DNA from: Nitrososphaerales archaeon
GTDB lineage: Archaea > Thermoproteota > Nitrososphaeria > Nitrososphaerales > UBA213
Reading direction: 5' to 3'
Length of the DNA stretch: 64,000 bases
Assembly: GCA_965197925.1 (NCBI GenBank)
Contig: CBDAOC010000014.1
Coordinates: forward strand, 2,271-66,270
Positions within the stretch are counted from its first letter, which is position 1. The number at the start of each line of letters is the position of its first letter. The translations under genes and the position numbers were made by a program. The notes under the pieces were generated by a model. The model was not told where the DNA came from. It worked only from the letters and a program-made list of their open reading frames with translations, and did not search any database. Below are positions 7,306-63,482 of the stretch, one piece after another.

Positions 7306-7512
7306 CTAAAATATACTATCAACAACATCTGGTAGATATTTCACAGCACGCCAAGCTCCTAAGAGAGCAACTCCGTGATTAACTTCCATTTCAGCAGACA
7401 TCATATTATGCCAAAACAACTCTTCCCCTGCAGTGCTGGTAAGCCACAAAGTAAGACCGATAGTGAAGTTTAGATGTGCATTGTCAATAATCTTTCGGAT
7501 AATTTCTCGCAC
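7306..7512 (-). CDS. Small membrane protein (holin candidate)
   Basis: Two hydrophobic segments. Confidence 0.35.
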   Translation of the reverse strand: MREIIRKIIDNAHLNFTIGLTLWLTSTAGEELFWHNMMSAEMEVNHGVALLGAWRAVKYLPDVVDSIF

Positions 7513-7781
7513 AAGTTATTTCCTCTTAACAAATCAATAGCAATATAGAACTTATTTCTATACTCATACCAAAAAGCAAGACTGTCTTCGCTAACATAAT
7601 CAAAATCTATACCAATCAAACCAGCATCTTCTAACGACTGCATTTCATTTACTGTGTCAAAACCTATTAGTTCAGGTAATTCTTCAGTTTCCACATATTC
7701 TTTTAATATCTTGATAGAATCACTATCAAGATTATCTAAAATATGCTGGACTTCTTTAATTTGCTCTTCTGTATACTGCAA
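7470..7781 (-). CDS. Hypothetical acidic protein
   Basis: ORF in the - strand operon. Confidence 0.5.
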   Translation of the reverse strand: MQYTEEQIKEVQHILDNLDSDSIKILKEYVETEELPELIGFDTVNEMQSLEDAGLIGIDFDYVSEDSLAFWYEYRNKFYIAIDLLRGNNLCEKLSERLLTMHI

Positions 7782-7784
7782 GTT

Positions 7785-8960: not shown

Positions 8961-8969
8961 AATAGTCTC

Positions 8970-23529: not shown

Positions 23530-23862
23530 ACGCGCTGACAACGGCGCTGACATGCGCGTCAGCGCCGCCGCGCCAATGGCCGCAAGGGTTGGTGAGAACG
23601 GTGCTGATGCTGACACGAGGTCACGCATGCACTCACATGAGATATTTCAAAATCCAAAATACTTAACATATGTATAGTGTAAAAAATTAATTGTGATTCT
23701 TGTCAGCGCGTCAACACCTTCTTCTAAACCCTTATGGCCATTGGTGTGGCGGTGCTGACATTGATGGCCATTGAGTTTGTGCCACGAGCTCACGGCCCCA
23801 TTGACGTGGCGGTGCTGACAACGGTGCTGACACGATGTCAGCACCGCGGCCCAAGCGGGCCG
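23530..23862. repeat. Origin-like region: GCTGACA/TGTCAGC iterons and ~55-bp inverted repeat around an AT-rich core
   Basis: Many (GT)GCTGAC(A) copies in both orientations. 23556-23616 is an imperfect reverse complement of 23701-23760. Lies upstream of the primase-helicase. Confidence 0.6.
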
Positions 23863-24077: not shown

Positions 24078-26576
24078 ATGAGTTTGAAAAACGCTTTAGA
24101 ATATCTACAAGCCCTCGGTCACGAGACTACAGAAGTTAGAATATCATGTAAAGACAAAAAGGCATTAGGGCCAAAGTCTTTTACTGGAGATATATGTTTT
24201 GGTTATTACAGTTCAGATCAATACGATAAACTGATACTTGATATTGAAAGTTACAATAACTGTGAAAACATTGAGAGTATTTGGGTTACTATACAAGATA
24301 TTGATTCAGCATTGCTTGCAAGATCAGCGAATAGGATAAAGCATAATGCAGGCACTGGAGATACAACATCAATCAAAGACATAACTCATTTCACTCACTT
24401 TCCTATTGACATAGACCCATCACGACCTTCAAAGATCAGCAGCTCACAACTTGAACTGAAAGTCGCAGCTGAGGCAGCTCAAAGAATATGCAAAGAAGCT
24501 TTGTTGGGATATGAAGTAATAAAGGCTATGTCTGGAAACGGGTATCATATATTGATACCTATACATCCATTAGAGAACACTGAAAAGAATTATGAGAGAT
24601 GGAAACGTGTAGGTGATATATTTGCTCACGATGTCATGGGAATAATAGAAGGTATTGATGAAGATACTTTACCTTATTCCAATCCAACACTGAAGTTGTA
24701 TGGAACTACATCACGAAAAGGTGATTCAACTAAAGAAAGACCTCATAGAGTAAGTAGCGTAAAGATTCCAGAAACAATCATACGATATGATTTTGACGCT
24801 ATAGAAACTCTAATACTTGGATATGAGGATAAAGTAAGAACTGGTAGAAGTAAAAGCAAGGCTAAGTCAAGTTTTGATAAAATGACTTTAGAGGATTTTT
24901 TGAGAGAAAACGGAGTTAAACATGCTGTTCCAAAGAATACTCCAGACGGTATTGTATTCCCAATGCAATGCCCTTTTGACGAGTCTCATGGAAGAGATGC
25001 TTTTGCTATTCAAAGATTAGACGGGAAGTGGGGATGGGAATGTTTTCATTCATCATGTGAAGGTAAAGACTGGCATGAATTCAGAGCTCTTGTAGCTCCG
25101 AAAAGTTTAGAATACGGCAGACCTATTGAGGGAAATCAAAAGAGAGGTTATGTTGACGATAACAATATAGTTATTGAAGATATTGAAGATATTGAAGATA
25201 TACCTCTTGATAGATTGGATTTTCCACAAGATGAGTTAATGGACGGGATTTTTGCCTTTATGAAAGCTGCTTGCAAGGATAGACCAGATCTTAGACCAGA
25301 GTTCTTACATGCAGTTACTATGAATAACATCGGAGCTGTTATCGGTAGGCGAATATGGCTTGAAGACGACCCTCCAGTTTTCCCTAATCAGTATACTGTA
25401 ATAGTCGGTCGGACGGGGTTTTCTCGTAAGACAACAGTTACAAAACTTGGAAAGTCTGTTCTAAAGATCGCTGATGAAAATGTTATCAGACAAAATGCCC
25501 TTGCGACTCCTGAAGGTTTGATTGATCTATTCGTGTTCCCAAACGGACTTTGGCCTGGATGCGAGATACCAATAGATTATGAAGAAATATATGAGGAGAT
25601 AAAGTATGAGCATAGAAAAGGAATTGCTAAAAGCCATGACAAGTTTGATGATCTATTGCGTAGTAGAGTTGAGAACTCGGATCACGAAGAAGGTCTTAGG
25701 ATGCAACTTGTTCAGAACGAATTGAGTGTATTATTGAGAAAGAGCAAGAGAAGTAGCGGTATGGGGCTTGTGGAGTGTTTGACAGAGTTTTATGATATGG
25801 AAGATGCAGTTTCAAGCCCAACAAAATCCAAGCCTACTTCAGCACCTTATCCATGTCTATCAGTTATAGGTTCTACTACTATGGCATGGCTTGAGAAAAA
25901 TGTTGATATTGATGATATTCAAGGCGGCTTTGTTAACCGCTTTTCTTTTTATCTTGCTGAAGATATTGATGAGTCTGCAATTAAGATGTTTTATCCTCTA
26001 ATTGATAAAGGTCTTATTCAGAAAGTAGCAAAAATTATCAACGGTATAAGATTGCAGTTTCCTAATCCAACTGGGTTTGATATGAAAGAAGAAGCAAAGG
26101 AGTATGCTGAAGATTGGAATTCAAAGATTGTAAGGGAGGTAGCAGAAATAAAGAATGAGTCTGTTAGAGAATCACTTTCGCGTTATGCTTTACATTTCAA
26201 GAAGTTTTCTCTGATATACGCATTATTTGATAATGCTATAAACGATACGACTATAAAACTAACTTCAGTTAAGAAAGGATGCTTATTGGCAAGTTATCAT
26301 ATAGCAGTTGCTAAAAAGTTATTCGGGAGCTTTACAATATCTGAAGAACAAAGGGCTGAAGATGTAGTTTATCATCTGATTAGGTCTAAAGGGACTCGTG
26401 GAATGACTCCAAGAGAGATTGCGTCATCAAGCAGGCATGTTGCAAGTAGTAAAAAGGCTTTGGAGGCATTAGTGTCTTTAGAAACAGCTGGGTTTGTTGG
26501 TAAGTCAAGTATACAAAACAATCCAGGTAGGTTTAGGTGGCATGCGCTAAAAGAGATTGATCTTGACAGATTATAG
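24078..26576 (+). CDS. Primase-helicase (AEP-like N-term, Zn finger, DUF3987-type ATPase)
   Basis: DID...SGNGYH primase motifs, CPF...H...CFHSSC zinc finger, and VIVGRTGFSRKT P-loop. Confidence 0.8.
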   Translation: MSLKNALEYLQALGHETTEVRISCKDKKALGPKSFTGDICFGYYSSDQYDKLILDIESYNNCENIESIWVTIQDIDSALLARSANRIKHNAGTGDTTSIKDITHFTHFPIDIDPSRPSKISSSQLELKVAAEAAQRICKEALLGYEVIKAMSGNGYHILIPIHPLENTEKNYERWKRVGDIFAHDVMGIIEGIDEDTLPYSNPTLKLYGTTSRKGDSTKERPHRVSSVKIPETIIRYDFDAIETLILGYEDKVRTGRSKSKAKSSFDKMTLEDFLRENGVKHAVPKNTPDGIVFPMQCPFDESHGRDAFAIQRLDGKWGWECFHSSCEGKDWHEFRALVAPKSLEYGRPIEGNQKRGYVDDNNIVIEDIEDIEDIPLDRLDFPQDELMDGIFAFMKAACKDRPDLRPEFLHAVTMNNIGAVIGRRIWLEDDPPVFPNQYTVIVGRTGFSRKTTVTKLGKSVLKIADENVIRQNALATPEGLIDLFVFPNGLWPGCEIPIDYEEIYEEIKYEHRKGIAKSHDKFDDLLRSRVENSDHEEGLRMQLVQNELSVLLRKSKRSSGMGLVECLTEFYDMEDAVSSPTKSKPTSAPYPCLSVIGSTTMAWLEKNVDIDDIQGGFVNRFSFYLAEDIDESAIKMFYPLIDKGLIQKVAKIINGIRLQFPNPTGFDMKEEAKEYAEDWNSKIVREVAEIKNESVRESLSRYALHFKKFSLIYALFDNAINDTTIKLTSVKKGCLLASYHIAVAKKLFGSFTISEEQRAEDVVYHLIRSKGTRGMTPREIASSSRHVASSKKALEALVSLETAGFVGKSSIQNNPGRFRWHALKEIDLDRL

Positions 26577-28060: not shown

Positions 28061-28366
28061 ATGAGTATTGATAATCTCGGTAAACTTGCAGCTGATAGAG
28101 AACTCAAGGTATTATCATTTATTAAAGAGATGAACGATAATAAAAAGAAAGTTAAGTTCTCTGATATATGCCAACTGTTTTATGATGACAACTATGTTAC
28201 TGTAGCAGCAACAGCACTTGATGACTTACTTGCTATAAAGTTTATAGAAGTTGAAAAGCATTATCTCTATATCAACAGAAGGTCGTTCAGCTACAAAATA
28301 ACTTGGAGAGGTTTAAGAGCTATTCGTGAAACCGAAAACACTGTAAATAATAGCCCTGTGGTTTAA
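28061..28366 (+). CDS. Winged-helix protein
   Basis: KVLSFI...ALDDLLAIKFIEV...YKITWRG. Confidence 0.55.
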   Translation: MSIDNLGKLAADRELKVLSFIKEMNDNKKKVKFSDICQLFYDDNYVTVAATALDDLLAIKFIEVEKHYLYINRRSFSYKITWRGLRAIRETENTVNNSPVV

Positions 28367-28429
28367 CGCACAAATCACTCAAACATGCGTTAGAGAGGCG
28401 TAGAGAGGCACTAACGGTGACGCTGGGCG
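28325..28429 (+). repeat. ~100-bp dispersed element, copy A
   Basis: Imperfect reverse complement of 40624-40723 (core CTCAAACATGCGT..GAGAGGCGTAGAGAGGCACT...GACGCTGGGCG). Confidence 0.85.
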
Positions 28430-28487
28430 TGTTTGATTTATGGCGGCCGCGTGTGTCGGTCGCCATTATCTACATAAGGAGAGCATA

Positions 28488-38201: not shown

Positions 38202-39479
38202 TTATGTTCCTGTTAAACTATTTAAAGCTGTTACCATAGTAGATCTTGCAGAATTTGAAACTGGTGAAGAAGCTAACTCTGAGAATAACTGGGCTATTCT
38301 ATTTTGAAATTGAGCGTCAGTTGATAAGTCTAATTCAATTACAAGAGTAGTTCCTACAAACCTTTTTCTTGTTCCAACTGCAGTATTTAAGTTACTATTT
38401 AATAATGTTCTAAACTCCGATGGAGATAGATCATTTTCAATATAGTAATCAGATTGTATATTGTTAGTTACTGTTTCATCTATGTAATAGTTATTCTGAT
38501 TAGTTATAGTATTAGTAACTGTTCTGTCAATATAGTAATCTTGTTGATTATTGTTAGTTACTGTTTCATCTATGTAATAGTTATTCTGAAAGTTATTAGT
38601 AATAGTATTAGTTACAGTTTCATCTATGTAATAGTTATTCTGATTAGTTATAGTATTAGTAACTGTTCTGTCAATATAGTAATCTTGTTGATTATTGTTA
38701 GTTACTGTTTCATCTATGTAATAATCTTGTTGGAAGTAGTTATTAGTGGTAACTGTCTCATCAATATAATAATCTTGTTGGAAGTAGTTATTATTAGTTA
38801 CAGTCTCGTCAATATAATAGTCATTCTGTATATTATTAGTAACTGTCTCATCTATGTAGTAGTCGTTCTGGACGTTGTTAGTAACTGTCTGAGTCACATA
38901 ATAGTCATTCTGTATATTATTAGTAACTGTCTCATCTATGTAGTAGTCATTCTGATTAGTTACTGTTTCATCTATATAGTAATCTTGCTGATTATTGTTA
39001 GTTACTGTTTCATCTATATAGTAGTCATTCTGAAAGTAATTATTGTTAGTAATAGTTTCATCTATGTAATAGTCATTCTGAACATAGTAATCGTTCTGGA
39101 CAGTCTCATCTATGTAATAGTCATTCTGAACATAGTAGTCGTTTTGAACATAGTAATCATTCTGTATAACAGTTTGAGCAACTGCTTCCTGCCCAACAAC
39201 AATCTCAAAATAAGTTTTTGAAACCTCCCCGCTACCCTGTGTAGCCGTGAGCTCTATCGTTACTATAACTCTATCTGTTATTTCTCCAGCAGTTATTAGA
39301 AGATCAGTTCCAACTACTGGAGACTCTACAGTCGCATGCTCTGTATTAAGTGAACGAGCGTCTATAGCAGTATCAATAGGATGTAAAAGATACCTTCTTA
39401 TATTAGGAAGCTTATACTCCTCTTGTGATACTAAATTAATTCTTTGTATCTGCTGTGACCACTCGTTTACTAATGCCAT
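38202..39479 (-). CDS. Q-N-D-Y-Y-I-D-E-T-V-T-N repeat protein
   Basis: 19 YY-containing repeats between two non-repetitive domains. Confidence 0.75.
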   Translation of the reverse strand: MALVNEWSQQIQRINLVSQEEYKLPNIRRYLLHPIDTAIDARSLNTEHATVESPVVGTDLLITAGEITDRVIVTIELTATQGSGEVSKTYFEIVVGQEAVAQTVIQNDYYVQNDYYVQNDYYIDETVQNDYYVQNDYYIDETITNNNYFQNDYYIDETVTNNNQQDYYIDETVTNQNDYYIDETVTNNIQNDYYVTQTVTNNVQNDYYIDETVTNNIQNDYYIDETVTNNNYFQQDYYIDETVTTNNYFQQDYYIDETVTNNNQQDYYIDRTVTNTITNQNNYYIDETVTNTITNNFQNNYYIDETVTNNNQQDYYIDRTVTNTITNQNNYYIDETVTNNIQSDYYIENDLSPSEFRTLLNSNLNTAVGTRKRFVGTTLVIELDLSTDAQFQNRIAQLFSELASSPVSNSARSTMVTALNSLTGT

Positions 39480-40623: not shown

Positions 40624-40723
40624 CGCCCAGCGTCCCTGTGAGTGCCTCTCTACGCCTCTCAGACGCATGTTTGAGCCGCTTGTGGGTAAAACCACACAAA
40701 CGATTTTTACAGTGTTTTTCACG
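40624..40723 (-). repeat. ~100-bp dispersed element, copy B
   Basis: Matches 28325-28429 in the opposite orientation; adjacent GGCCC-N4-GGGCC at 40725-40738. Confidence 0.85.
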
Positions 40724-40745
40724 TGGCCCATTAGGGCCGAATTTG

Positions 40746-43700
40746 CTATCCACTGCGAGATGTTAGTCTTCTTTCATCTAACATTGCTTGTATTTCATAA
40801 TGAACTTCAGCAGCTACATCTTTTGAGTCCATGCTCACATAAACATTAACTATAGTATCACCTGATCCTGAACTTATATTACCAAGACTTCCTATTAGCT
40901 CATCAAACTTGCCCCTAAAGTTCTTATCAAAGTGACGTTGCTGATCTTCAGCTGATTGAGTTGCTTTAGATTTGATTATATCATATGCCATCTTCTCGCC
41001 ATGTTTACCAGCATACATATCATTCTTATAGCTGTCAAACACTCCGAAGTTTTTGCGTATAGTTTCACTAAAGTCTGATAATAATCCGTCAACACCTCTT
41101 CCGAGCATGTCAACTATTCCGCCTCCAATATCTTTTGACGCTCCGCCTAAGGCGTTACTAAAAGCACCTGGAGCTAATATGCTTGCTCCAGCCATAGCTA
41201 TCCCGCCTCCGCCTAAAGACCCTTTAAACATATTGAATAGACTTTCAATTTGAGATTTTGTTGCTAATGCAGATTGTGCAGTTTTCTGCATAGTCCCGAT
41301 CTGGAATAGTTGAGTTTCAGCCATAGCTGCCTGAACTCTTCTTTCGTTAGATATTCTTATCTCTGTTTCAATATAACTTTGAGCTATTATACGTAGACTT
41401 GATTTGATAAATGCCAATACAACTTCTTTAAAAGTGCTTTTCTGTTCAAATAGTAAGTCAAGAGTAGCCCCAATCATGTCGTTTGCAAACTTACGTTGAA
41501 GATTTGACATTTTCTTAAACTGCTTTTCATATTCCTTCTCTTTCTTATCACGTAGCTTTCTTATAGCATCCCAGCCTTTTTCATTAACCTTGTATTCCCA
41601 ATCTCTCAAATCCTCAGCATGTTTCTTGCCTTTTTCCGCTATATCTGCATCAATACTATCTTGCCGTGCATTTAGAGCTATCTCTTCTGCATGTATCTGT
41701 TCAACAGCATCCTTATGATCCTTTACACGAACTTGTTGATATGAGCGATAAGCTTGAACTTCAGCGAACCACAACTCTTGAGTTTTAGCGCTATACTCTT
41801 TGACTATAGCAAGTTTTTCTGCTTCTGTAAGAGTTGTGATATTATCAAGTCTATTTTGTAAATCACTTGCAAGACTTATTAGCTTTTGATTTCTTTGTTC
41901 AACATCTTTTATTCGCAAAGCTTCTTGGAATTGTTTTACAAATCCTCCTTGTTGATTCTTTAAAGCTCCAGCGATATTCTTACCAGTCTTGTCAAACCCA
42001 TAAGTCATCATATCTCGCTGATTCTCAAACATATACCTCAACATATTAGCAGGGCTATACTTCTCTTGAGCTTCCTTAAAGTCCTTGCTGAAGTCCTTTT
42101 GAGCGTCCTTTTGTATTGTTCTTATTCTCTTAAGATGCTCTTTAGTTCTATCTTCCTCCCATTTGTTTCTATCTTTGACTCCTTTTTCTCTTTCTTTACG
42201 GAAGTCAAGCATTATATCAATCTTATGTTTAGTATATTTTTTGTGAGATTCATAGTCATCATGGTAGTATTTCGTCAAAGATTTATTAAGGTCTTCAGCT
42301 ATATTCCTTATCTCCTCATAATACTTCTGATTTATAGCAAGTTTATCTGACTTAGATAAATCTTCCTGCTCCAGTTCCTTCTCTCTAATTTCCTGAGCAA
42401 GCCTTGCCATATTAACAGCAAGACCTCTCATTTGACCTGGCGAGTCAGATTTTTTGAATGCTCTATCAAGGTTTTGTATTTCATACTCTAAACTCTTTAT
42501 CTCATACTCAAGGTCTCTTGAGGATTGTGCTGCTGTATAGAACTTCTCTGCTATTCCAACAGAGTCTAACGCTGATTTTATTTTCATTAAATCAGATTCA
42601 TATGTTGTATATCTCTTGACTATACTTCTTGCAACTTTACCTTCCTCTACACCTGCATAATTTGCACGCATCCTTTCAAGTATGGATTCAAGTCTATTAG
42701 CTTCCTTTGTAAGAGTTTCAGTCCTTGTAGTAACTGCTGATCTTATTTTTTGTAAGTTACCAGACGTTATATTCTCAATAAAAAGTATCTGCTCAGCTGC
42801 AATAGCTGCAAAATCTTTTCCAGTTCGTGAAAACTCTTGCCCAGCTCTTTTAACTTCGTCAAGTTGGTCTTCAAGGCTTGTTTTTATTTGCTTTAGAGTC
42901 TGCTCAACAAGTATATTTTTATTGATATCTCCTATAACATCTTCAATATCCTCAAGTGCATTCTTAGCTTCCTTTGTAGAAGTTTGCATATTAGCAAATG
43001 CAATACCTAATCCTATCACTGCAGAAGCGGCTATACCTATTATCCCAGCACCTCTTAATAGAGTAATGCTAAGCGCTCTTGCACTCATTTGAGCTGCGTC
43101 AAGAGCTTTCCCAGCTGCTTGAGCTGCAACTGCTCCAGCAGTAAGATTTTTGATATAGTTTGTTACTATATTTAAACCAAGTTTGACATGCCAGATAGTT
43201 ATCAATGCTATAGCTGCAGTTATAGCTCCACTAAATAATGTAAATACGTTAGCAAGACCTATAATAACACCTATTGCAGATTTTACCCAAGTAGGCATTG
43301 ATCTTATTATATTAAGCCACCCTTTCATAGCGTCTGTAATTATCATAACTACAGGAAGCAAGCCCTTACCTATTTCAGCTTTCATTACTTCAAACTGATC
43401 TGTAAGTAGTTCTATTTGTGCTGAGTATGTTGACATATCAGCACCTTGAGAATACTTATGTAAAGTTGTTAATACTTCAATAAGACCTCTTGCCTTTTCA
43501 ACTCCTATACTATCAAGATGCTGTCTAAATGTCTCAATATCACGTATTACGACACCGAATGTTTGAGTCGCTCTTGCCCAAAATGTTGGGACCTCTTCAA
43601 GTATAGGTCTTAAATCCTGAAGAACAAGTTTATTACCAGCTATTGCCTGCGATATCTGTCTTAATACTCTTTCAGCTTCAGCAGTCCCCTTGCCAAGTTG

Positions 43701-46082
43701 AGCAATTGATTTAGTTACTCCAGTAATGATTATATCTACTTCTTTTGCTGAAACTCCAGCTGCGCGAAGTTGAGAGTTGTATTTTATTATGGCTTGAGTG
43801 CTAATACCAACTAAATCTATACCTATCTGTATAAGATGACTTAACCTCCTGTCTCCAGCAGCTGCAGAAGCCTCAGTAGCTCTTACCGTCCGCTCAAACT
43901 TCTCCATTTCTCCAGCAGCTTCAATAATACTTGCAGTCATTCTCCTGATTACACGAGCTGTAGCATCTACGCCAAACTCAAGGTCATGTAATATATTTGT
44001 ATATGTAAAGTATTGGACATTTACTCTGGAAAGGTCTTTGACAAGCTTGCTAAATGTATCAGACTGCTGTTTATTTACTTTTTCAAGTCTTTGAGTTTCA
44101 GCACGAGCTCTTTTTGAAGACTGTCTAAGCTGATCCATCATTGCAGACATTTCTTTAGTGCTTGCTCCAGCTTCACGAGCAGCATTAGCATATCTACGCA
44201 TAGCAATTGCTAATTGTTTCTGATCTGCAATAGCTTTCCCGCCAAACTTAGCTTGATACTGAACAGATAACTTTACTCTCTCAAGTCTTTTCTTTTGAGC
44301 ATCAGCAAGCTGTTTTTCTGTTCCTAAAAGACTTTTATTTTCATCAGACAACTTGCTTATAAGAGAAATTAACTTCTGGACATTTCCAGACTTAACAAGC
44401 TTAGTAATATAATCATCTGATTTAATCATTCCTCTATCATTAAACTTAGCGTCTTTGAATAAAGCTCCTTGAGTATGCTGTTGCCCTCCCATTTTATCTA
44501 TTCTTGATACAGTAGCTCTATACTTCAGAATAATTTGATTTAGTTTTTCTTCAGCTCTTCTAATACGATCTATATTCTTTATTCTTGCCAAAGTTCTTTT
44601 ATCGTTAATATCACGAGCTTTTACAGCAATTTTATTGTCTTGATCTATTTGCTTATTATACGCTTCAAGTTCAGCCTTTCTTTCACGCTCTATAGTTTTT
44701 AATTTATCACGGACTTGCTTATCATTTGAATCTCTTGCAGAAAGAAACCTCTTATTCTGATCCTCTATAACTTGATCTGAATACTTTTGTTCAGCCTTTC
44801 TTTCACGCTCTATAGTTTTTAATTTATCACGGACTTGCTTATCATTTGAATCTCTTGCAGAAAGAAACCTCTTATTCTGATCCTCTATAACTTGATCTGA
44901 ATACTTTTGTTCAGCCTTTATTCTTTTTTGTATATTCTTTAATTTATCACGAACTGTCTTATCATTTGAATCTCTTGCAGAAAGAAACCTCTTATTCTGA
45001 TCCTCTATAACTTGATCTGAATACTTTTTATTAGCTGCATTTAGGGTTTCTTCTGCTTTTATCCTCGCTCTTATACCTTTTATAGCAAGCTTATTATCTG
45101 CTTGTCTTTTAGCATTTCTCTGTTTTTCAATTGCAGCATTAGCTTTTAGTATTGCTTGCTCTTCTTTAGCCTCCTCGTTAATTTGCCTTCTTATATGAAG
45201 CAAAGTCTGCATTTCAGACTGTAATAGCCCCATAGCACCCTGAATTTGCTTTGGATCTCCTGAAGACATAGCGCCAGTGACCTGGGGCATGATTTCAGAA
45301 CCAATTTTCTTATCAATGTCATATCTATGAGCTGTGCCAAGCTTTGATTTTATTGATGTAAGTATGTTGTCATAATCTCGCATCAACCGCAGAAGCCTAT
45401 CTATATCATCAGTGCTTTTCTTAGCTCCAGTTTGTTGAGCTTTATGCTGTTCAGTAACCTCCTCTTTAACTTTCTTAATAACTGCTTTCTTTGCTTTTTC
45501 AGCATCAGATTGTTTATTAGTTACCTCTATTTGATCCTTTCCTTGACTTAAAGCTTCTTTTCCAGCTTCAGTCAAAGCTTTCATAGAATCAGTTTGTTGT
45601 TTTTGATATTGGACTAATCCCTTACTTGCTGCAGCCCAGCCTCCAATACTTTTAATCATTACCTGAGATGCATCACCAGTTCTTTCAAGACCTCTTTCTG
45701 CAATCTTTATAGCAGTGTTCATCTCATCAAAAGTTCGGGTAACGTTAAATTCAAGAGTTTTACCAAGCTTTTCTGCGTCAACTTGTCCACCACTCAGCGC
45801 TTCTCTGATTTTCTTCCCAACTACTGAAGATTCAATTGAAACTTGTTTATACACCTCGCTAAGCCTCTCTGCTTCAGCTTGATTGAGGTTTATAGAGCGT
45901 GTTAATTCCTTAAACCCTTTAATAGTTACATCTAAAGCGTGCTGAACGTCATACTTGTTAGTCTTGCTAAAACCTTCAGCATACCTATTAGCTTCTGTTA
46001 AGCCTTTAATAAGCTTATCTAACACAGCGCTAAATAGATCATCAGCTTCTATGTCAAATTGAATCTTGTCGCCTGCTGGCAT
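40746..46082 (-). CDS. Tape measure protein
   Basis: 1778-aa helical protein; tape-measure motif RVLRQISQAIAGNKLVLQDLRPILEEVP; hydrophobic central segments; follows the tail chaperones. Confidence 0.9.
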   Translation of the reverse strand: MPAGDKIQFDIEADDLFSAVLDKLIKGLTEANRYAEGFSKTNKYDVQHALDVTIKGFKELTRSINLNQAEAERLSEVYKQVSIESSVVGKKIREALSGGQVDAEKLGKTLEFNVTRTFDEMNTAIKIAERGLERTGDASQVMIKSIGGWAAASKGLVQYQKQQTDSMKALTEAGKEALSQGKDQIEVTNKQSDAEKAKKAVIKKVKEEVTEQHKAQQTGAKKSTDDIDRLLRLMRDYDNILTSIKSKLGTAHRYDIDKKIGSEIMPQVTGAMSSGDPKQIQGAMGLLQSEMQTLLHIRRQINEEAKEEQAILKANAAIEKQRNAKRQADNKLAIKGIRARIKAEETLNAANKKYSDQVIEDQNKRFLSARDSNDKTVRDKLKNIQKRIKAEQKYSDQVIEDQNKRFLSARDSNDKQVRDKLKTIERERKAEQKYSDQVIEDQNKRFLSARDSNDKQVRDKLKTIERERKAELEAYNKQIDQDNKIAVKARDINDKRTLARIKNIDRIRRAEEKLNQIILKYRATVSRIDKMGGQQHTQGALFKDAKFNDRGMIKSDDYITKLVKSGNVQKLISLISKLSDENKSLLGTEKQLADAQKKRLERVKLSVQYQAKFGGKAIADQKQLAIAMRRYANAAREAGASTKEMSAMMDQLRQSSKRARAETQRLEKVNKQQSDTFSKLVKDLSRVNVQYFTYTNILHDLEFGVDATARVIRRMTASIIEAAGEMEKFERTVRATEASAAAGDRRLSHLIQIGIDLVGISTQAIIKYNSQLRAAGVSAKEVDIIITGVTKSIAQLGKGTAEAERVLRQISQAIAGNKLVLQDLRPILEEVPTFWARATQTFGVVIRDIETFRQHLDSIGVEKARGLIEVLTTLHKYSQGADMSTYSAQIELLTDQFEVMKAEIGKGLLPVVMIITDAMKGWLNIIRSMPTWVKSAIGVIIGLANVFTLFSGAITAAIALITIWHVKLGLNIVTNYIKNLTAGAVAAQAAGKALDAAQMSARALSITLLRGAGIIGIAASAVIGLGIAFANMQTSTKEAKNALEDIEDVIGDINKNILVEQTLKQIKTSLEDQLDEVKRAGQEFSRTGKDFAAIAAEQILFIENITSGNLQKIRSAVTTRTETLTKEANRLESILERMRANYAGVEEGKVARSIVKRYTTYESDLMKIKSALDSVGIAEKFYTAAQSSRDLEYEIKSLEYEIQNLDRAFKKSDSPGQMRGLAVNMARLAQEIREKELEQEDLSKSDKLAINQKYYEEIRNIAEDLNKSLTKYYHDDYESHKKYTKHKIDIMLDFRKEREKGVKDRNKWEEDRTKEHLKRIRTIQKDAQKDFSKDFKEAQEKYSPANMLRYMFENQRDMMTYGFDKTGKNIAGALKNQQGGFVKQFQEALRIKDVEQRNQKLISLASDLQNRLDNITTLTEAEKLAIVKEYSAKTQELWFAEVQAYRSYQQVRVKDHKDAVEQIHAEEIALNARQDSIDADIAEKGKKHAEDLRDWEYKVNEKGWDAIRKLRDKKEKEYEKQFKKMSNLQRKFANDMIGATLDLLFEQKSTFKEVVLAFIKSSLRIIAQSYIETEIRISNERRVQAAMAETQLFQIGTMQKTAQSALATKSQIESLFNMFKGSLGGGGIAMAGASILAPGAFSNALGGASKDIGGGIVDMLGRGVDGLLSDFSETIRKNFGVFDSYKNDMYAGKHGEKMAYDIIKSKATQSAEDQQRHFDKNFRGKFDELIGSLGNISSGSGDTIVNVYVSMDSKDVAAEVHYEIQAMLDERRLTSRSG
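44670..45028 (-). repeat. 120-bp (40-aa) tandem repeat x3 within tape measure
   Basis: KYSDQVIEDQNKRFLSARDSNDK repeated three times with near-identical DNA. Confidence 0.9.
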
Positions 46083-46854: not shown

Positions 46855-47662
46855 ATTGACCCCTTTCTTTTTGTTGAAAAAACTCAACTATAAATATGAA
46901 GTCTGTGATATATTTATCTCTCACAGCACCTAAATTATTAGAACGCTTAATATAAGCGTTCTGTGATCTACTTTTAACCTTCTCAAATCCAGCACGATTA
47001 GAAATAACCGTCATCTCTTGACCATCTGTTGTTATAGTTTGCCCTGCGTAAGTCCTAAACATTTGAGGATCTAACAGATAATCAAGTGCGTCTCTTATCT
47101 TAGAAGACCTGACAGCATTTGACTCAAGGAATCTATAAGGAGAATGAGCTCTTCCCATAACAAGCCGTATGATTATCATTATAGCTTGATTAGAAGCATT
47201 AACATCAGCGCTTTCGCCTTCCTCCATCAGCTCATCAGCTCCAAAATCTATCAATAATGCTGGAGGTTCTATAGTCGCCTCATTATCATATGGGTTATTC
47301 TCAATGTTTAGTATGTTTACATCAGCAATCTTTACAGCATTCATTATTCTTGCATTCTGCAAAGCTTCTATATCCAATTCACCCATCATTATATCTTGTG
47401 TATAGTCAACTGTGCCTCCGTCTTGCCCATAACCGTCAGAATACCCATCATCTCCACTTTCTAATATCAGACGATCTTTATTTATTCTTTTATTGCCTGC
47501 AATTTCAAGCATATCGGCATATTGAGAAGGAGGAAAAGTTTCTGCAAAAATAGTTGGATCTCTATCACCTTTTTTCATATTAGAATTGATAAAATATGGA
47601 TTCATCAATTTCAAGCATTGTCCAAAAGTTCTTGCAAAGATATGAGTTCTGATGTCTAACAT
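46829..47662 (-). CDS. Tail completion/terminator-like protein
   Basis: Position in the neck/tail cluster. Confidence 0.4.
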   Translation of the reverse strand: MLDIRTHIFARTFGQCLKLMNPYFINSNMKKGDRDPTIFAETFPPSQYADMLEIAGNKRINKDRLILESGDDGYSDGYGQDGGTVDYTQDIMMGELDIEALQNARIMNAVKIADVNILNIENNPYDNEATIEPPALLIDFGADELMEEGESADVNASNQAIMIIIRLVMGRAHSPYRFLESNAVRSSKIRDALDYLLDPQMFRTYAGQTITTDGQEMTVISNRAGFEKVKSRSQNAYIKRSNNLGAVRDKYITDFIFIVEFFQQKERGQYAVQDNQA

Positions 47663-57645: not shown

Positions 57646-57690
57646 AACCTAAAAAACCGTTGACATCAACCGTCAACGGTTTTTTAGGTT
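57646..57690. terminator. Perfect 19-bp hairpin, bidirectional terminator-like
   Basis: AACCTAAAAAACCGTTGAC-N7-GTCAACGGTTTTTTAGGTT. Confidence 0.75.
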
Positions 57691-57692
57691 AA

Positions 57693-57851
57693 GGAAGCGT
57701 AGGAGCGAACCGAACCCCAATGGGAAGCGCAGGAGCGAACCGAACCCCAATGGGAAGCGCAGGAGCGAACCGAACCCCAATGGGAAGCGCAGGAGCGAAC
57801 CGAACCCCAATGGGAAGCGCAGGAGCGAACCGAACCCCAATGGGAAGCGCA
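57693..57851 (+). repeat. 30-bp tandem repeat x5.3
   Basis: GGAAGCGCAGGAGCGAACCGAACCCCAATG units, head to tail. Confidence 0.95.
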
Positions 57852-57853
57852 GA

Positions 57854-57917
57854 GGATACAAGAAACTCTTTTGGGATTATGAAAAGAGTCTCCGAATTAA
57901 CGGACTGATGAGTATCC
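57854..57917 (+). ncRNA. Hammerhead ribozyme, type II (variant with AA insertion before GAAA)
   Basis: GGATAC-AA-GAAA-CTCTTTT..AAAAGAG-TC-TCCG-AATTAA-CGGA-CTGATGA-GTATCC; predicted cut after GUC at 57890. Confidence 0.7.
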
Positions 57918-57988
57918 ATCAGAATCTGCATATCGGATGCGGATTTATGGATTTTCCAGAAATTATGCATAGATAAAAAAGGAAAAAG

Positions 57989-58255
57989 ATGTATAAAATA
58001 GTTCAGGGTGATAGAAAAGACGATTATAGAGTCCCAATTGGGATGCAGTCGGATTATGACGCTGATTCTATTGAATCAGCAATAGAATCAGCAAATAGGT
58101 TTTGTATGGATTCGTATGGAATAACTCTACAATGGGAAGATATGGAAGTAGATAATTCTGGTATGTTCCCAGTTCACGCAAGAGCTTATGGGATAGATGA
58201 AGGCTCTTATCTTGAAATAGAGGTCCGTAGCGGATACCCAGTATTTCCCTCGTAG
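57989..58255 (+). CDS. Hypothetical early protein
   Basis: AAGGA RBS; first ORF after the hammerhead. Confidence 0.6.
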   Translation: MYKIVQGDRKDDYRVPIGMQSDYDADSIESAIESANRFCMDSYGITLQWEDMEVDNSGMFPVHARAYGIDEGSYLEIEVRSGYPVFPS

Positions 58256-58273
58256 CAATCTTACAAACATCGG

Positions 58274-59008
58274 ATGCGGATTATTCCGAATCTGATAAGG
58301 AGTTTACGGATTATGAAACGTCTACGTCCTGAGGAAATACAGGACAGGATCAAACGGCAAGAGGATGCGGAGCGTGAAAGACGTGATATCAAACCAGAGC
58401 ATCGGATAAAGTCTTCGGATGATATCAAACGTAAAGAGAAGATCAACAAGGATCGGATAGAGTCTCGTAAAGCAGAATATGAGAAAAAGAGACCCGATCC
58501 TATTGATCCGAAAACTACATCGGATAACCCAAAGCCGAAAACTGCATCGGATAAGTTTATACCAGCTGGTATCTCTTTATCCAAGCACACTCGGCAGTGC
58601 TTGAAATCAGTCGGAATTGGGAATGAATATCAACTCGGTGTCGTAAGCTTGGAATATCTTGAATCCAAGCATAAAATCTCTCGGATGCCAGACCTTGCGT
58701 ATCAGGAATTCAAGGCGTGGTATATTTGGTATAAGAATGAGCTTGAAATAGAAGAACTTGAAGAGAAGCTTGATGCCAAAGAGAAAAAAGGGATTGAGTA
58801 TCAGGAGAAACTCTCGGGAATCAAGTCCAGTATTGAAATGGAGAAGAATGCTGGAACTTTGATATCGGGCGTATCAATTGACAGATCCAAACGAGGCAGA
58901 AATCGTGGGCTTTATACACCTCCGAAGAAGCACCGTGAGATCGCACTCATAAATCGTTTAGAAGAGAAACTAATGCAACTTGAAGCTAAAAAGGAGTCAA
59001 AATCATGA
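58274..59008 (+). CDS. Charged hypothetical protein (likely start at MKRL, 58313)
   Basis: Long ORF; AAGGAG precedes the MKRL start. Confidence 0.6.
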   Translation: MRIIPNLIRSLRIMKRLRPEEIQDRIKRQEDAERERRDIKPEHRIKSSDDIKRKEKINKDRIESRKAEYEKKRPDPIDPKTTSDNPKPKTASDKFIPAGISLSKHTRQCLKSVGIGNEYQLGVVSLEYLESKHKISRMPDLAYQEFKAWYIWYKNELEIEELEEKLDAKEKKGIEYQEKLSGIKSSIEMEKNAGTLISGVSIDRSKRGRNRGLYTPPKKHREIALINRLEEKLMQLEAKKESKS

Positions 59009-59178
59009 AACGGATAGATCGTATTGAACAAGCTATAGAACAGCTTAGAAGCGATAGCGTGAGAATAGCATTATCGTATCGCAGATGTCTCATAAATCAT
59101 AGTGAAGCATCTCGGATGATATATGATAGGAATGTAATAATCCGAAAACTTCAAAGAGGTGAATATCTTATTAGATAG
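59005..59178 (+). CDS. Hypothetical protein (57 aa, not in ORF track)
   Basis: MKRIDRIEQAIEQL..., AAGGAG RBS, ATGA overlap. Confidence 0.5.
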   Translation: MKRIDRIEQAIEQLRSDSVRIALSYRRCLINHSEASRMIYDRNVIIRKLQRGEYLIR

Positions 59179-59193
59179 CTTTGAAAGTCGGAT

Positions 59194-59263
59194 AAAGGGG
59201 CGGCTTGGTCTGAAGATCACCAGAATACTGGTGTGATTCAGGCTGAGTCGCCCCTTTTTTATT
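59194..59263 (+). terminator. Long hairpin terminator with internal tandem G.A loop
   Basis: AAAGGGGCGGCTTGGTCTGAA-GAT-CACCAG-AATA-CTGGTG-TGA-TTCAGGCTGAGTCGCCCCTTTTTT. Confidence 0.65.
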
Positions 59264-59294
59264 TAAAGACATCTATTACAAAGGAGATAGAATC

Positions 59295-59381
59295 ATGTAT
59301 GAGATATGTAAAGCAGTGGCTACGATCTTAGTCTTTGCCTTAGCAGTAGTCGTGATGCTGGTTGCCTACATAGTCTTGTAG
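59295..59381 (+). CDS. 28-aa single-TM peptide
   Basis: MYEICKAVATILVFALAVVVMLVAYIVL with AAGGAG RBS. Confidence 0.5.
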   Translation: MYEICKAVATILVFALAVVVMLVAYIVL

Positions 59382-59554
59382 GAACTAATTTAGACGCGGC
59401 GGATTAATTATTAGAAATCGCATTATGGATAAAGATCGCGAAGATCTCATAATAATCGGATGCGGATAGTCGGATACTGGAGTCGGATATTTGGCAAAAG
59501 GTATGATAGCAAAGGCAGATTTCAGCTGTAAAGCTACCTTTGCTCGTCTTTTTC

Positions 59555-60205
59555 GGCCCATACGGGCCGCCAAAAGCGGTGCTGACGGTGCTGACGGGAG
59601 CGGACAAAATTTGTGTCAGCACCGTCAAGTCAATGGCCACAAGGCTCCCACTTAACGATGCTGACACTTTTAAGATATTTTAAACTATGTTAAGTTAAGT
59701 AAATACTCATTAAGTATTTTGGAATAAAACACTTATCATAGAATAATATATCTTTACAACTCACTTAACGGATGCTAACCTATTTTAGCAAAACACTTAT
59801 CATAGAATAACAACAATTTGTTGATTAGTCAACTTATGATAACCGTTGAATTGTTTGTGTAGTAAACAGACGATAACCATTGTATGTATTTGTAGTAAAA
59901 TCCCGTCCAGTAAACATATGATAACCTATTTCTATTCTGGCACGCCTCAATAAAAGATATATTTTATCTTTTATTACTTACTTGATAAATATGTTTATTT
60001 ATGGTATAATATGATTAGTAGGTTTGATTAGGGTTTTGGGTGTCATAATGTCGGATGCGCGTCACGCGTCAACAGCGCTTCACGGATGCACGGCCCCATT
60101 GACGCGGCGGTGTCTATGCACGGCCCCATTGAGTTTGTAAATCCGACCTGCGGCCCCATTGGTGTGGCGGTGCTGACAACGGTGCTGACAACGGTGCTGA
60201 CGTTA
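59555..60205. repeat. Second origin-like region with GTGCTGAC iterons, CCATTG boxes and AT-rich core
   Basis: Same motifs as 23530-23862; AAAACACTTATCATAGAATAA occurs twice in the core. Confidence 0.6.
59982..60010 (+). promoter_or_regulatory. Early promoter
   Basis: TTGATA-N17-TATAAT with extended TG. Confidence 0.65.
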
Positions 60206-60286
60206 GCATAGAATAAGTATTTTATGCTAACTATATTGAGAGTATGAAACTTATGATATAATAACCTATAGGAGATAATAGCAGTT

Positions 60287-60535
60287 ATGAAAGAGCAAAA
60301 CGAGCGCAGATCAGAGGATATAAGCATTAGGTTAGTCCAAGACCTTGTAAACTATGGTCATATGGAAATACAAGATGACTTGTCCATCTTATGGATTGGC
60401 GAGATTTGGCTTCCTTCAATAGGATGCCTTGATGTTATTGAGAGAATGAAGAATGGAGAGAACTTTGAGAGAAAGAACTTTAGTATTAGAATGTATGCTG
60501 ATGACATATATTCAATTGATATATTAAATCTATAA
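60287..60535 (+). CDS. Hypothetical early protein
   Basis: ORF with AGGAG upstream. Confidence 0.55.
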   Translation: MKEQNERRSEDISIRLVQDLVNYGHMEIQDDLSILWIGEIWLPSIGCLDVIERMKNGENFERKNFSIRMYADDIYSIDILNL

Positions 60536-60546
60536 GGAGACATATA

Positions 60547-60822
60547 ATGCAAGGTATCATTGAACGAGGTGAAAATGGAGATTTCAGGCTTGATGTGGTC
60601 AAAGATGAGCATATTGTCAGATCATACAGAATTGTTGGAAGCTCTATAGACAAAAATGTTAAGATGATGGTTGGTAGATATGATGGCAATTTGGAAGTCG
60701 GTGAAGAATATAAAGAGCGAGTATTGGCAACTGGGACACATAGAGAAATGTATTACAAAATGCTAAGTATAGCAGCAGATGCTAACACAAGCATGGGTGT
60801 TATTGATATATTAAATCTATAA
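60547..60822 (+). CDS. Hypothetical early protein
   Basis: AAGGAG RBS. Confidence 0.6.
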   Translation: MQGIIERGENGDFRLDVVKDEHIVRSYRIVGSSIDKNVKMMVGRYDGNLEVGEEYKERVLATGTHREMYYKMLSIAADANTSMGVIDILNL

Positions 60823-60932
60823 CATGACAAGATGACTCTTCGGAGTCATCGGAGTATATTAAATGGGCTTATTAACAGAGGTTATACTAAACTAAGCAGC
60901 CTCATTCATGTATCAACAAGGAGATATAGAAT

Positions 60933-61304
60933 ATGTTAGAAAAGCAACAACTGAAACACTTGATGGACACAGGATACAAAGTCCAGCAAGTCAACTTATA
61001 TTTCACTGCTGATCCAGTCCCTGATAAGACTAAGATAGCAGCAGATATTAAGTCTTGGCGGATAACGATGCATATCTCATCCTTCAATGACTATTCAGCA
61101 ATGGCGAATCATCTTGAAAGATTAGTTGAAAGCTATTTAGATGCTAATCTTTACATAACTGATGTTAAAGCAGTTCGTATCGGTTTGATATGGGAAAGAA
61201 AAGAAGAATATGGAACATCAGTTGAGTTCTGTGATTGTATCGTCCGTTCATCTTCGGAAATGTCCGAAGTATCAGATCAAATCATTAACCTTAGTTGGTT
61301 ATAG
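60933..61304 (+). CDS. Hypothetical early protein
   Basis: GGAG RBS. Confidence 0.6.
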   Translation: MLEKQQLKHLMDTGYKVQQVNLYFTADPVPDKTKIAADIKSWRITMHISSFNDYSAMANHLERLVESYLDANLYITDVKAVRIGLIWERKEEYGTSVEFCDCIVRSSSEMSEVSDQIINLSWL

Positions 61305-61349
61305 GTAAGATCAATCCACCTGTATTCAGGTGTCAAGGAGTATTAAAAT

Positions 61350-61517
61350 ATGTTAGATCAAGCTACGTTAGACCTGATGGAAAAGAACTTTGGCGCGAAT
61401 GAAACTAAGATGTCTCAAGACAGATTTCGTAGATCTGATATTGATGAGAAAATGCGTATTAAGCGCAAGAACAACCGCAAGCAAGCTAAAAATGCTCGCA
61501 GACGTAATAGGAGATAG
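61350..61517 (+). CDS. 55-aa protein with Arg/Lys-rich C-terminus (not in ORF track)
   Basis: MLDQATLDLMEK...KRKNNRKQAKNARRRNRR; AAGGAG RBS. Confidence 0.55.
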   Translation: MLDQATLDLMEKNFGANETKMSQDRFRRSDIDEKMRIKRKNNRKQAKNARRRNRR

Positions 61518-61522
61518 TAACT

Positions 61523-61825
61523 ATGGAAACTCGCAAGTATATCCTAACAGTAAAATGTAAGGATGAAGAACATGCTGACTGTAACTTCAACGACTTAGAA
61601 GAACTGCTTACTGACCTTCGTGACGAACACAAAGTCATTGAGGGATATAAGCTTGAGATAGTTGAAGAGGAAGAGGAAACTATGTATTGCACAATGACTT
61701 ATGAAGAACAAGAGCATTATGGGCAATGCGTGGATCCTCAATGTCCATACTATCAGAATATGAGTGAAGAAAAGAGAGTTAATGCTATTAGAATGGGTAT
61801 GATGAGTAACTCTAACATTCAATAA
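61523..61825 (+). CDS. Hypothetical early protein
   Basis: AGGAG RBS; acidic, with Cys/His clusters. Confidence 0.6.
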   Translation: METRKYILTVKCKDEEHADCNFNDLEELLTDLRDEHKVIEGYKLEIVEEEEETMYCTMTYEEQEHYGQCVDPQCPYYQNMSEEKRVNAIRMGMMSNSNIQ

Positions 61826-61852
61826 CTAAGCAACTCACATATAGGAGATATA

Positions 61853-62140
61853 ATGCCAAGATCAACTTACGAAGTAACTCAAGATTTGATTGATAACCCT
61901 AAAGTTGAACCTCATATTGGTTGTGATTGTTTTCTACATCATACACTGAAACCTCACTTTGGTGACGATGTAGTTTTTGGATTTGAAATTGCTAATATCA
62001 ATGATTACGAATTTAAAGTTCTCAAAAACCTTAGGTTGTGGCAGATCAGAGCATTTCAATATGAGCCAATAGAACCTATCACTATATTTGTTGATACAGA
62101 TGATCACACTATAGGTATAATAGGAGAAGACGATGCCTAA
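61853..62140 (+). CDS. Hypothetical early protein
   Basis: AGGAG RBS. Confidence 0.6.
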   Translation: MPRSTYEVTQDLIDNPKVEPHIGCDCFLHHTLKPHFGDDVVFGFEIANINDYEFKVLKNLRLWQIRAFQYEPIEPITIFVDTDDHTIGIIGEDDA

Positions 62141-62426
62141 AGCAGCTTTTTCAAACTATCAAACAGCCCCTGCTTATGAAAACATTGATATTGATGAGAT
62201 GGTAATCCACGTTATAGCTCCTCAAGAATGTGATAATCCAATTGTATACAATATAATCTCTAAAGAAGAGTTTATATCTGTTCAAGAAGAAGATTATCAT
62301 GTGGATCTCATCATAATATCGTTTACATCCATAGATCACGGAGGGTCATCTTGGTTGTATTACAATCATTTTGAGAGCTGGAAAGACTTTATAGAGTTTT
62401 CTAAAACTGTAAAGTTTGGTATGTAA
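62133..62426 (+). CDS. Hypothetical early protein
   Basis: AGGAG RBS, overlapping the previous stop. Confidence 0.6.
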   Translation: MPKAAFSNYQTAPAYENIDIDEMVIHVIAPQECDNPIVYNIISKEEFISVQEEDYHVDLIIISFTSIDHGGSSWLYYNHFESWKDFIEFSKTVKFGM

Positions 62427-62430
62427 ACTA

Positions 62431-62496
62431 AGCAACACGAAAGACCTGATGCTCAATCAGGTCTCGGAGGCATAGCCTTCCTGATGAGTAGTTGCT
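62431..62496 (+). ncRNA. Hammerhead ribozyme, type II
   Basis: AGCAAC-AC-GAAA-GACCTGAT-GCTCA-ATCAGGTC-TC-GGAGGC-ATA-GCCTTC-CTGATGA-GT-A-GTTGCT: complete core and three stems; predicted cut after CUC at 62465. Confidence 0.85.
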
Positions 62497-62566
62497 AAAA
62501 CGTGAATACACGTTATCTTTTCATTAGCTGAAATAACTTTGACATATAGAATAGGAGAATTATCTA

Positions 62567-62980
62567 ATGAGTGAACAGACTAATCCCGCTCCGAGTAATT
62601 TTCATATTGATGAGTATGCTACATGGATAAAAGAGTGTAAAAAGACTTTCCACAAGCAAGTTAGAAGCAATGCTCGTGGAAGAGGTGAGAAGGTATTCAA
62701 ATCCTTTCACGGATTTGATGAAGACGGAAATTCCGAATTTGCTTACTTTCACCTTGAGAAGTGTAGTCCAACTCACTATAACATTCTTATATCAGCACCT
62801 TATCTCAATGACGATATAGATTTAACCAGTGTAAACTATACATCAAGAGGATTCACATATATTGCAGCTCTTGAAAAAGGTTTACGGTGGGACGGTGGCA
62901 GAATAAGGCATAAGATTGAAATGGCGATCACTGGTGGCGATAGAGATGATGTAGATATGTTTGAGGAGGACAGTGTATAA
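62567..62980 (+). CDS. Hypothetical early protein
   Basis: AGGAG RBS; follows the hammerhead. Confidence 0.6.
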   Translation: MSEQTNPAPSNFHIDEYATWIKECKKTFHKQVRSNARGRGEKVFKSFHGFDEDGNSEFAYFHLEKCSPTHYNILISAPYLNDDIDLTSVNYTSRGFTYIAALEKGLRWDGGRIRHKIEMAITGGDRDDVDMFEEDSV

Positions 62981-63318: not shown

Positions 63319-63482
63319 ATAACAAAGCCCCACTCAACGACAACCTGTATGCAGGTTTTCCATAAGTGGGGCTGGGCGAGAGGCAGGGAAGCGAAGATGA
63401 GGGACTCGCCAACGAAGCCCCCTCAGAACAGAGTGATGCACACTCAGAAACTCGCAGACTTCTTGGATTGGGAGATGATGAT

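Follow-up and report, generated by a model that had tools for sequence, protein, structure and literature searches.

In bacteriophage T7, RNase III cuts the early transcript at intergenic hairpins, and defined mRNAs with structured ends are obtained. RNase III is a host protein that leaves a 5'-phosphate and a 3'-OH, whereas hammerhead ribozymes cut RNA without protein and leave a 5'-OH and a 2',3'-cyclic phosphate. In 2011, Perreault et al. described type II hammerheads and reported that in prophages several hammerheads can flank a gene or a short block of genes; in their proposal, long transcripts of phages would be processed into mRNAs with the length of an operon or a gene (PMC3088659). 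In the haloviruses HF1 and HF2, a hammerhead variant is located 13 nt before the start of a helicase gene, and a mapped 5' end falls within three nucleotides of the cut (PMC3088659). Hammerheads also flank small non-conserved open reading frames (ORFs) (PMC6155905), and the function of hammerheads in phage genomes is still called open (PMC6765202, PMC6155905). Here we describe hammerhead motifs in a 64,000-nt stretch of DNA (the window, positions 2271-66270 of the 74,696-bp contig C14) and in the rest of the same contig, which belongs to the 2.9-Mb, 20-contig genome bin of a Nitrososphaerales archaeon. Judged from the sequence, the best explanation, to which we give a probability of roughly 0.6, is that three complete type II motifs (HH1, HH2 and HH3) and one split motif (HH4) would cut one long viral transcript into pieces of 4-6 kb.

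The C14 motifs share several features with the known systems. First, as in type II hammerheads (PMC3088659, RF02276), stems I and III are capped, stem II is open and the core letters are the same, and an A follows the first two pairs of stem II as in the RF02276 consensus CUGAUGAGcAG. Second, as described for type II hammerheads, several copies are placed around single genes or around short stretches of small phage ORFs that are not conserved (PMC3088659). The hammerhead of HF1 and HF2 (HHphage) is likewise a variant in an early polycistronic region, a few nt before a start codon, in a tailed virus linked to an archaeon (PMC3088659). It differs in being a single copy from a hypersaline host, established as archaeal (PMC3088659), whereas the C14 copies form a spaced series and are linked to an archaeon by binning. 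Third, like the minimal hammerheads used in vitro, the C14 copies are made of the core and three plain helices, and contacts between loops or by a pseudoknot are not evident (PMC6155905). However, the minimal hammerheads are engineered and efficient only at high Mg2+ (PMC6155905), whereas the C14 copies are natural, would act in cis within a predicted mRNA and, for HH3, may form a 4-pair contact of loop I.

Hammerhead motifs on contig C14

HH2 (62431..62496, + strand) is the copy with a canonical core and was recognized by sequence reading, a strict descriptor, its fold and an alignment with RF02276. Read directly, it is AGCAACAC/GAAA/GACCUGAU-GCUCA-AUCAGGUC/U-C(62465)/GGAGGC-AUA-GCCUUC/CUGAUGA/GU(A)GUUGCU. 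Stems I/II/III have 6/8/9 pairs; stem I carries the loop AUA, the 3' strand of stem II is AGCAACAC and its 5' strand is GU(A)GUUGCU with one bulged A, and stem III is closed by A15.1-U16.1. All core letters (C3 U4 G5 A6 N7 G8 A9, G12 A13 A14, A15.1-U16.1, H17) are present with zero insertions, the G10.1-C11.1 and 1.1-2.1 pairs are intact, as they are in HH1 and HH3, and the cut is predicted after C17 at 62465. The minimum-energy fold is a three-way junction (z = -4.46).

HH1 (57852..57919, + strand) was recognized by its sequence, a relaxed descriptor, its fold and a covariance model, and reads GGAUAC-AA-GAAA/CUCUUUU-GGGAUUAUG-AAAAGAG/U-C(57890)/UCCG-AAUUAA-CGGA/CUGAUGA/GUAUCC. The order of parts is the same as in HH2, stems I/II/III have 4/8/8 pairs, the cut is predicted after C57890, and the minimum-energy fold is again a three-way junction (z = -2.6). 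All core letters are present, plus two extra A's (57860-57861) between C11.1 of stem II and G12. Because this 2-nt insertion adjoins the core, the activity of HH1 is doubtful, and its sequence indicates that it is probably slower or inactive. Another register of stem II that would absorb the AA was sought and none was found, and a type III reading, taken from a partial RF00008 alignment, was rejected as there is no GAAA or stem III partner beyond the downstream hairpin. In a viroid hammerhead, there is one additional nucleotide between A9 and G10.1, which is on the strand opposite to this insertion. Several insertions in hammerhead cores were reported with reduced activity (PMC3088659), and the core of the HF1/HF2 hammerhead also has a short insertion, which is found near C3 and stem I, whereas that of HH1 is found between stem II and G12 (PMC3088659).

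Two hammerheads at these places, their type II topology and predicted cut sites after C57890 and C62465 had been proposed in the initial annotation, and all of this was borne out by direct reading, with the descriptor also finding both motifs. The proposed distance of about 100 nt to a start codon agrees with the 99 nt (HH1) and 102 nt (HH2) from the cut site to the next ATG. The same annotation assigned a hammerhead core to both elements, which is right for the canonical HH2 and leaves the two extra A's of HH1 unmentioned.

The number of elements turned out to be larger on the whole contig than the two noted in the window. By DNA search of the bin, HH2 is 77% identical to a copy at contig 69006-69070 of C14, outside the window. 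This copy, HH3 (contig 69008-69071, + strand), was also found by the descriptor, with stems I/II/III of 3/10/9 pairs, all core letters, zero insertions, a predicted cut after 69044 and a three-way junction as the minimum-energy fold (z = -5.3). Between HH2 and HH3, stem II is identical including the bulged A, as are flanks of 16 nt and 19 nt. Stem III carries two compensatory changes (G-C to C-G and A-U to C-G), and stem I is reshaped from 6 pairs with the loop AUA to 3 pairs with the loop UAAC. The earlier statement that the stems of HH1 and HH2 share no sequence is true, but HH2 does have a paralogue in HH3.

The two ends of the contig hold the halves of another motif, HH4 (contig C14 74654-74696 and 1-35, + strand), seen in the sequence of both ends. 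The last 43 bases contain a stem II strand, GAAA, a 9-pair hairpin closed by A...U, an A and GAGGU, and the first 17 bases contain a C, CUGAUGA and a strand that pairs with the stem II strand at 8/9 positions; a Shine-Dalgarno (SD) sequence and an ATG (position 33) follow the CUGAUGA half. With GAAA, the A-U pair and A17 on one end, CUGAUGA on the other and stem I missing, we read this as a fourth hammerhead that was probably cut by the assembly. The complementary halves suggest that the contig represents an almost complete map that is circular or circularly permuted. The stems of HH1, of HH2/HH3 and of the split copy show no relationship in sequence, although they are paired, and the stem III sequences of all four copies differ from one another and are all paired, the basis of this covariation being four paralogues on one contig.

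The predicted cut sites are at contig 60160, 64735, 69044 and 74691, with spacings of 4575, 4309 and 5647 nt. All copies are on the + strand, between small unannotated ORFs and within one + strand block of small genes of about 20 kb. This block begins near contig 59254, extends to the contig end and, on a circular map, would continue as far as contig ~4691. HH2, HH3 and HH4 start 0-5 nt past the stop codon of the upstream ORF, and HH1 instead follows a repeat array. An SD and ATG follow the ends of HH3 and HH4 at a distance of about 25 nt.

Chance resemblance was evaluated with our own descriptor. Its strict form found only HH2 in the window, and when 0-2 inserted bases were allowed at the junction of stem II and G12, only HH1 was added. 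When the contig was shuffled 400 times with dinucleotides preserved, the relaxed descriptor found 246 sites with 9-18 summed stem pairs, and none of the 246 reached 20 pairs (maximum 18), while the observed copies have 20, 22 and 23. Strict descriptors of types I, II and III gave 14 sites with at least 13 summed pairs in the 2.9-Mb bin, and the 12 other than HH2 and HH3 had 13-17 pairs compared with 22-23 in these two. Other loci, 312 kb in total, gave zero matches besides copies of this contig, and 80 distantly related viral loci (800,414 bases) gave two. One of them, L123 (-) 7662-7721 (G405:C1:7660-7730), is a canonical type II hammerhead with stems of 8/2/9 pairs and an RF02276 score of 37.3 bits, which served as the positive control for this model; since it is Rfam-positive, the descriptor does find accepted hammerheads. 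L123 is an IMG/VR contig with a terminase ~29% identical to that of the C14 virus, and it gave the sole Rfam match in the 5 records searched whole. In addition, a covariance model built from HH2 and HH3 gave HH1 as the next best match (21.6 bits, E 0.0013), ahead of the best unrelated match (14.9 bits, E 0.15). HH2 and HH3 were confirmed as genuine hammerhead motifs and HH1 as a hammerhead-like motif, all far beyond chance.

The Rfam hammerhead models, which the initial annotation had named as a check, failed to detect them: the window and the locus record L007 gave 0 matches at the gathering threshold, and slices of 351-501 nt gave no hammerhead row at E <= 10. With slices of 80 nt, HH2 aligns to RF02276 from end to end with every core letter matching, and HH1 has a partial match to RF00008 (14.9 bits) and no match to RF02276. 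The RF02276-type consensus has a 2-pair stem II and, in 'a majority' of type II hammerheads, a pseudoknot in which loop I and the 3' tail form at least 4 pairs (PMC3088659). Unlike typical type II hammerheads, the C14 copies have a stem II of 8-10 pairs, in which the 3' tail pairs with the 5' flank just where the usual pseudoknot would form, and a loop I of just 3-6 nt, and HH1 adds its two A's before G12. The models miss the copies because the long stem II stands in for the pseudoknot. For HH3, the loop UAAC can pair with the GUUG directly after G-U-A (4 pairs including one G-U), in competition with the long stem II; the options of HH2 are weak, with 4 pairs at best that require stem I to open, and for HH1 no pairing of loop I with the 3' tail was found. 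This case shows that Rfam-curated models miss well-formed type II hammerheads without an evident pseudoknot, so surveys of viral genomes probably undercount hammerheads. What sets the C14 copies apart in structure is the long stem II at the position of the pseudoknot, together with a possible switch after cleavage.

Proposed division of a viral transcript and alternative explanations

The proposed mechanism is as follows. When RNA polymerase passes a motif, the RNA would fold and cut itself after C17 (A17 in the split copy), and the long transcript would be divided into pieces of 4-6 kb. The upstream piece would carry the stem III hairpin of 8-9 pairs and a 2',3'-cyclic phosphate at its 3' end, and the downstream piece would have a 5'-OH end followed by the stem I hairpin. 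The CUGAUGA of the downstream piece may then re-pair with a complement further downstream and pull the long stem II apart, and this stripping of stem II would release both pieces and leave the SD sequence and the AUG open. In the predicted 3' products of all four copies, the stem I hairpin is at the 5' end and CUGAUGA is paired with a downstream complement, and in those of HH3 and HH4 the SD and AUG are unpaired. These complements comprise 6, 8, 9 and 7 pairs, more than is found for most of the 648 CTGATGA sites elsewhere in the bin; because the test was chosen post hoc, its combined p (0.007) is only suggestive. Processing of a polycistronic mRNA fits the anatomy of the locus, in which the motifs are on the gene strand, intergenic and regularly spaced. 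The labels 'early genes' and 'phage' and the analogy to RNase III in T7, all from the initial annotation, are interpretation.

A more far-reaching version can be drawn from these features. In this version, the copies would represent a pseudoknot-free type II subclass missed by Rfam, in which the long stem II replaces the loop I pseudoknot. The CUGAUGA complement would act as a one-way switch that makes the cut irreversible, with the 5'-OH end capped by two hairpins, and a virus of ammonia-oxidizing archaea would in this way divide its 20-kb transcript in a host without RNase III/E-type processing. Taken as a whole, this version is speculative and we consider it unlikely.

Among the rival explanations, the one that survives best, although its probability is low, is that the motifs are module boundaries at the DNA level for recombination between strains, with a weak, vestigial or incidental ribozyme and a decayed HH1. 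The region was found in three public runs of one study, recorded as DNA or unknown, and the variant contigs described here are those among the matches listed. Their joints are given in L007 coordinates, where 4193-4217 corresponds to window 57922-57946 and 7102-10619 to window 60831-64348. In joint 4216->4528, ~24 nt stand in place of the 88-aa ORF after HH1; joint 8767->9251 starts right after HH2 and skips the 137-aa ORF; and joints 8366->8729 and 8095->8694 skip ORFs before HH2. As these joints are within a few tens of nt of HH1 and HH2, the hammerheads are at or near cassette boundaries. In the main variant of one run (7102->10619), a 3.5-kb block with about ten small ORFs and HH2 is replaced by an 18-nt insert that forms a hairpin, an example of cassette-level mosaicism in co-occurring strains. 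A role as recombination boundaries would account for variant contigs that branch at or near HH1 and HH2 and for the identical flanks shared by HH2 and HH3, and it agrees with the lack of the usual tertiary contact and with an insertion adjoining the core of HH1. However, a recombination site needs no intact 13-nt catalytic core and no helices with compensatory changes. This explanation and the ribozyme reading are compatible and not mutually exclusive.

A slightly less probable alternative is that the ribozymes are active in another role, in which an RtcB-type ligase would join the ends again to give circular or spliced RNAs, or HH1 would trim the 3' end of a non-coding RNA made from the repeat array. 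Successive hammerheads on the same strand, 4.3-5.6 kb apart, would indeed give pieces with ligatable ends, and Perreault et al. considered that products might be spliced or circular, although they reported that they could not detect any (PMC3088659). For trimming by HH1, it can be noted that a perfect 30-nt tandem repeat of 5.3 copies (57693..57852; Tandem Repeats Finder, 99% matches) abuts the 5' end of HH1 and ends exactly at its start. On the other hand, the 4-6 kb pieces are full of ORFs with SD sites and resemble ordinary mRNA, and no ligase gene was found in Pfam and PHROG scans that covered part of the contig's ORFs.

It is rather improbable that the elements mark transcript ends, with cleavage trimming the 3' ends or serving as a fail-safe against read-through. 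A 10-pair hairpin with a U-rich tail (57922..57946, + strand; terminator-like scan and 3'-product fold) and a 6-pair hairpin with a U-rich tail (62499..62514, L007 8770-8785, + strand; terminator-like scan and folds) are indeed found 3 nt past HH1 and HH2, respectively. However, HH3 and the split copy have no terminator-like hairpin and an SD and ATG within ~25 nt, and the terminator-like scan gave 14 sites against 8.8 +/- 3.1 in shuffles, which is barely over chance. Moreover, the two hairpins are nested inside the CUGAUGA-sequestering helix in the folds of the predicted 3' products: the one following HH1 lies within the helix that pairs the CUGAUGA box, and the one following HH2 within the pairing of CUGAUGAG and UUCAUUAG. 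Matches to sigma-70-like promoters were not over chance (78 vs 63.8 +/- 8.5 expected).

Chance resemblance of AT-rich intergenic hairpins with CUGAUGA and GAAA would agree with Rfam scores under threshold, but it is effectively refuted by the shuffles and the genome scan, with none of the shuffle sites reaching the observed stems, three complete copies and one split copy on one strand of one contig, none comparable in the other 2.8 Mb, and compensatory changes between HH2 and HH3.

Several results nevertheless weigh against the division of one long transcript by self-cutting motifs, which we still prefer. First, a whole-genome RF02276 search did not list any copy, and the 80-nt slice of HH2 scored 13.8 bits against this model (E = 1; gathering cut-off 37). 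Second, without the usual pseudoknot, the copies may behave like slow 'minimal' hammerheads at cellular Mg2+. Third, for the 2-nt insertion of HH1, a tested precedent at the junction of stem II and G12 was not found in the parts of the literature consulted. Fourth, HH4 is without stem I and could be made up of one half each from two separate copies with a common stem II, as is the case for HH2 and HH3. Fifth, with terminator-like hairpins right after HH1 and HH2, transcripts might simply end there. Finally, the main variant of one run lacks the 3.5-kb block with HH2, so HH2 is dispensable.

Viral setting, host and relatives

Judged from its genes, C14 looks like a tailed-virus genome of ~74.7 kb. 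PHROG matches include the terminase large subunit, a primase/helicase and a tail protein, and Pfam matches include a D12 methyltransferase and DUF3987 and, outside the window, an SF2 helicase and DUF7007. The small ORFs around HH1 and HH2 were matched neither in Pfam (0/10) nor in PHROGs (0/10). Three ORFs adjoin the motifs, and none of them has a family match (ORF call, Pfam/PHROGs; all + strand): an 88-aa ORF (57989..58255) is the first gene after HH1, a 97-aa ORF (62133..62426) has its stop codon 5 nt before HH2, and a 137-aa ORF (62567..62980) is the first gene after HH2. No tRNA was found in the window.

Upstream of HH1, a strong hairpin with A-run and U-run flanks (57651..57686; inverted repeat AAAAAACCGUUGAC...GUCAACGGUUUUUU) resembles a two-way terminator and is located after a 217-aa ORF and before the repeat array and HH1. 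The 30-nt repeat has ~60% G+C in a genome of 38% G+C, and each unit carries AGGAG and an in-frame ATG; a 62-aa repeat ORF (57720-57908) ends in the CUGAUGA box of HH1. The array could be an iteron or operator array, a sponge-like RNA or a repeat peptide.

Other repeats were also observed on the contig. A 69-nt direct repeat has two copies in the same gene block, ~1 kb apart and 97% identical (window 63374-63442 and contig C14 66619-66687), and window 60126-60190 is 85% identical to window 23768-23832 across 65 nt. Long minus-strand ORFs contain internal tandem duplications at window 38437-39168 and 44669-45028 (contig 40707-41438 and 46939-47298), which span ~500 nt (69-79% identity) and 120-240 nt (89-95% identity) and probably code for repeat domains of structural proteins. 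An element of ~70-100 nt is present in three copies, 80-82% identical, at window 28329-28437 (+) and 40624-40718 (-) and, outside the window, at C14 1874-1983 (+; L127). Each copy is intergenic, on the strand of the neighbouring genes and carries a doubled TAGAGAGGC. This element gave no Rfam match, and just 2 of the 21 pairs in its consensus fold covary; it could be a promoter, an operator or a structured RNA.

As for the host, the rRNA of the bin scores 1486.8 bits with the archaeal model vs 1107.6 bits with the bacterial one, and the bin encodes archaeal AmoA (368.6 bits) and no McrA, which identifies it as an ammonia-oxidizing archaeon. The contamination estimate of the bin is 5.37%. No DNA is shared between C14 and the other 19 contigs, so there is no CRISPR spacer match among them, and just two of the 124 C14 ORFs weakly match proteins encoded in other parts of the bin. 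Of the 46 long ORFs on C14, 24 (52%) follow an SD-like motif vs 16-21% on the four largest contigs, a frequency that speaks neither clearly for nor against an archaeal host. Such motifs are also found before 68% of the long ORFs on contig C2 and 40% on contig C16, and one region of C16 shows 44% identity to a C14 ORF (contig 25317-25769). It may be that C2 and some of C16 are viral as well, or do not belong to the archaeal genome. Binning is the only link between the virus and the archaeon, which is a candidate host, and the true host may belong to another domain.

Relatives of the virus were sought in several collections. Megablast of an 8-kb query against phage GenBank gave no match, and a 7-kb DNA query matched 0/8 genomes of the same family. 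In IMG/VR, no relatives were found for three neighbouring ORFs, a 484-aa protein and the helicase, and three hammerhead-derived patterns gave 0 matches each. In JGI metagenomes, the HH2/HH3 pattern matched three loci with one G+C-rich sequence, which was judged a chance match as it is without the A15.1-U16.1 pair and stem I. The helicase matched 45 of 401 genomes of the class, with a best non-self identity of 35%, hence not the same virus. Terminase relatives were found at 14 loci in GTDB contigs and at the 80 of 227 loci kept from IMG/VR, all at most 35% identical. In ENA/Logan assemblies, terminases 58-68% identical are encoded on contigs of 72-77 kb, and a 99% match is on a 128.7-kb contig, which may hold the full or an integrated form of the virus.

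Significance of the locus

Since the processing hypothesis was already published for phage hammerheads, the C14 locus is a new example and not a new kind of system, and its hammerheads overturn nothing in current understanding. Its value is that of a test case. Three to four copies are found on the same strand with regular spacing, each after a stop codon or before a start codon, and natural strain variants keep a ribozyme and swap its neighbouring genes. If the host is truly an ammonia-oxidizing archaeon, viral operons punctuated by ribozymes would reach beyond the haloviruses among the viruses of archaea.

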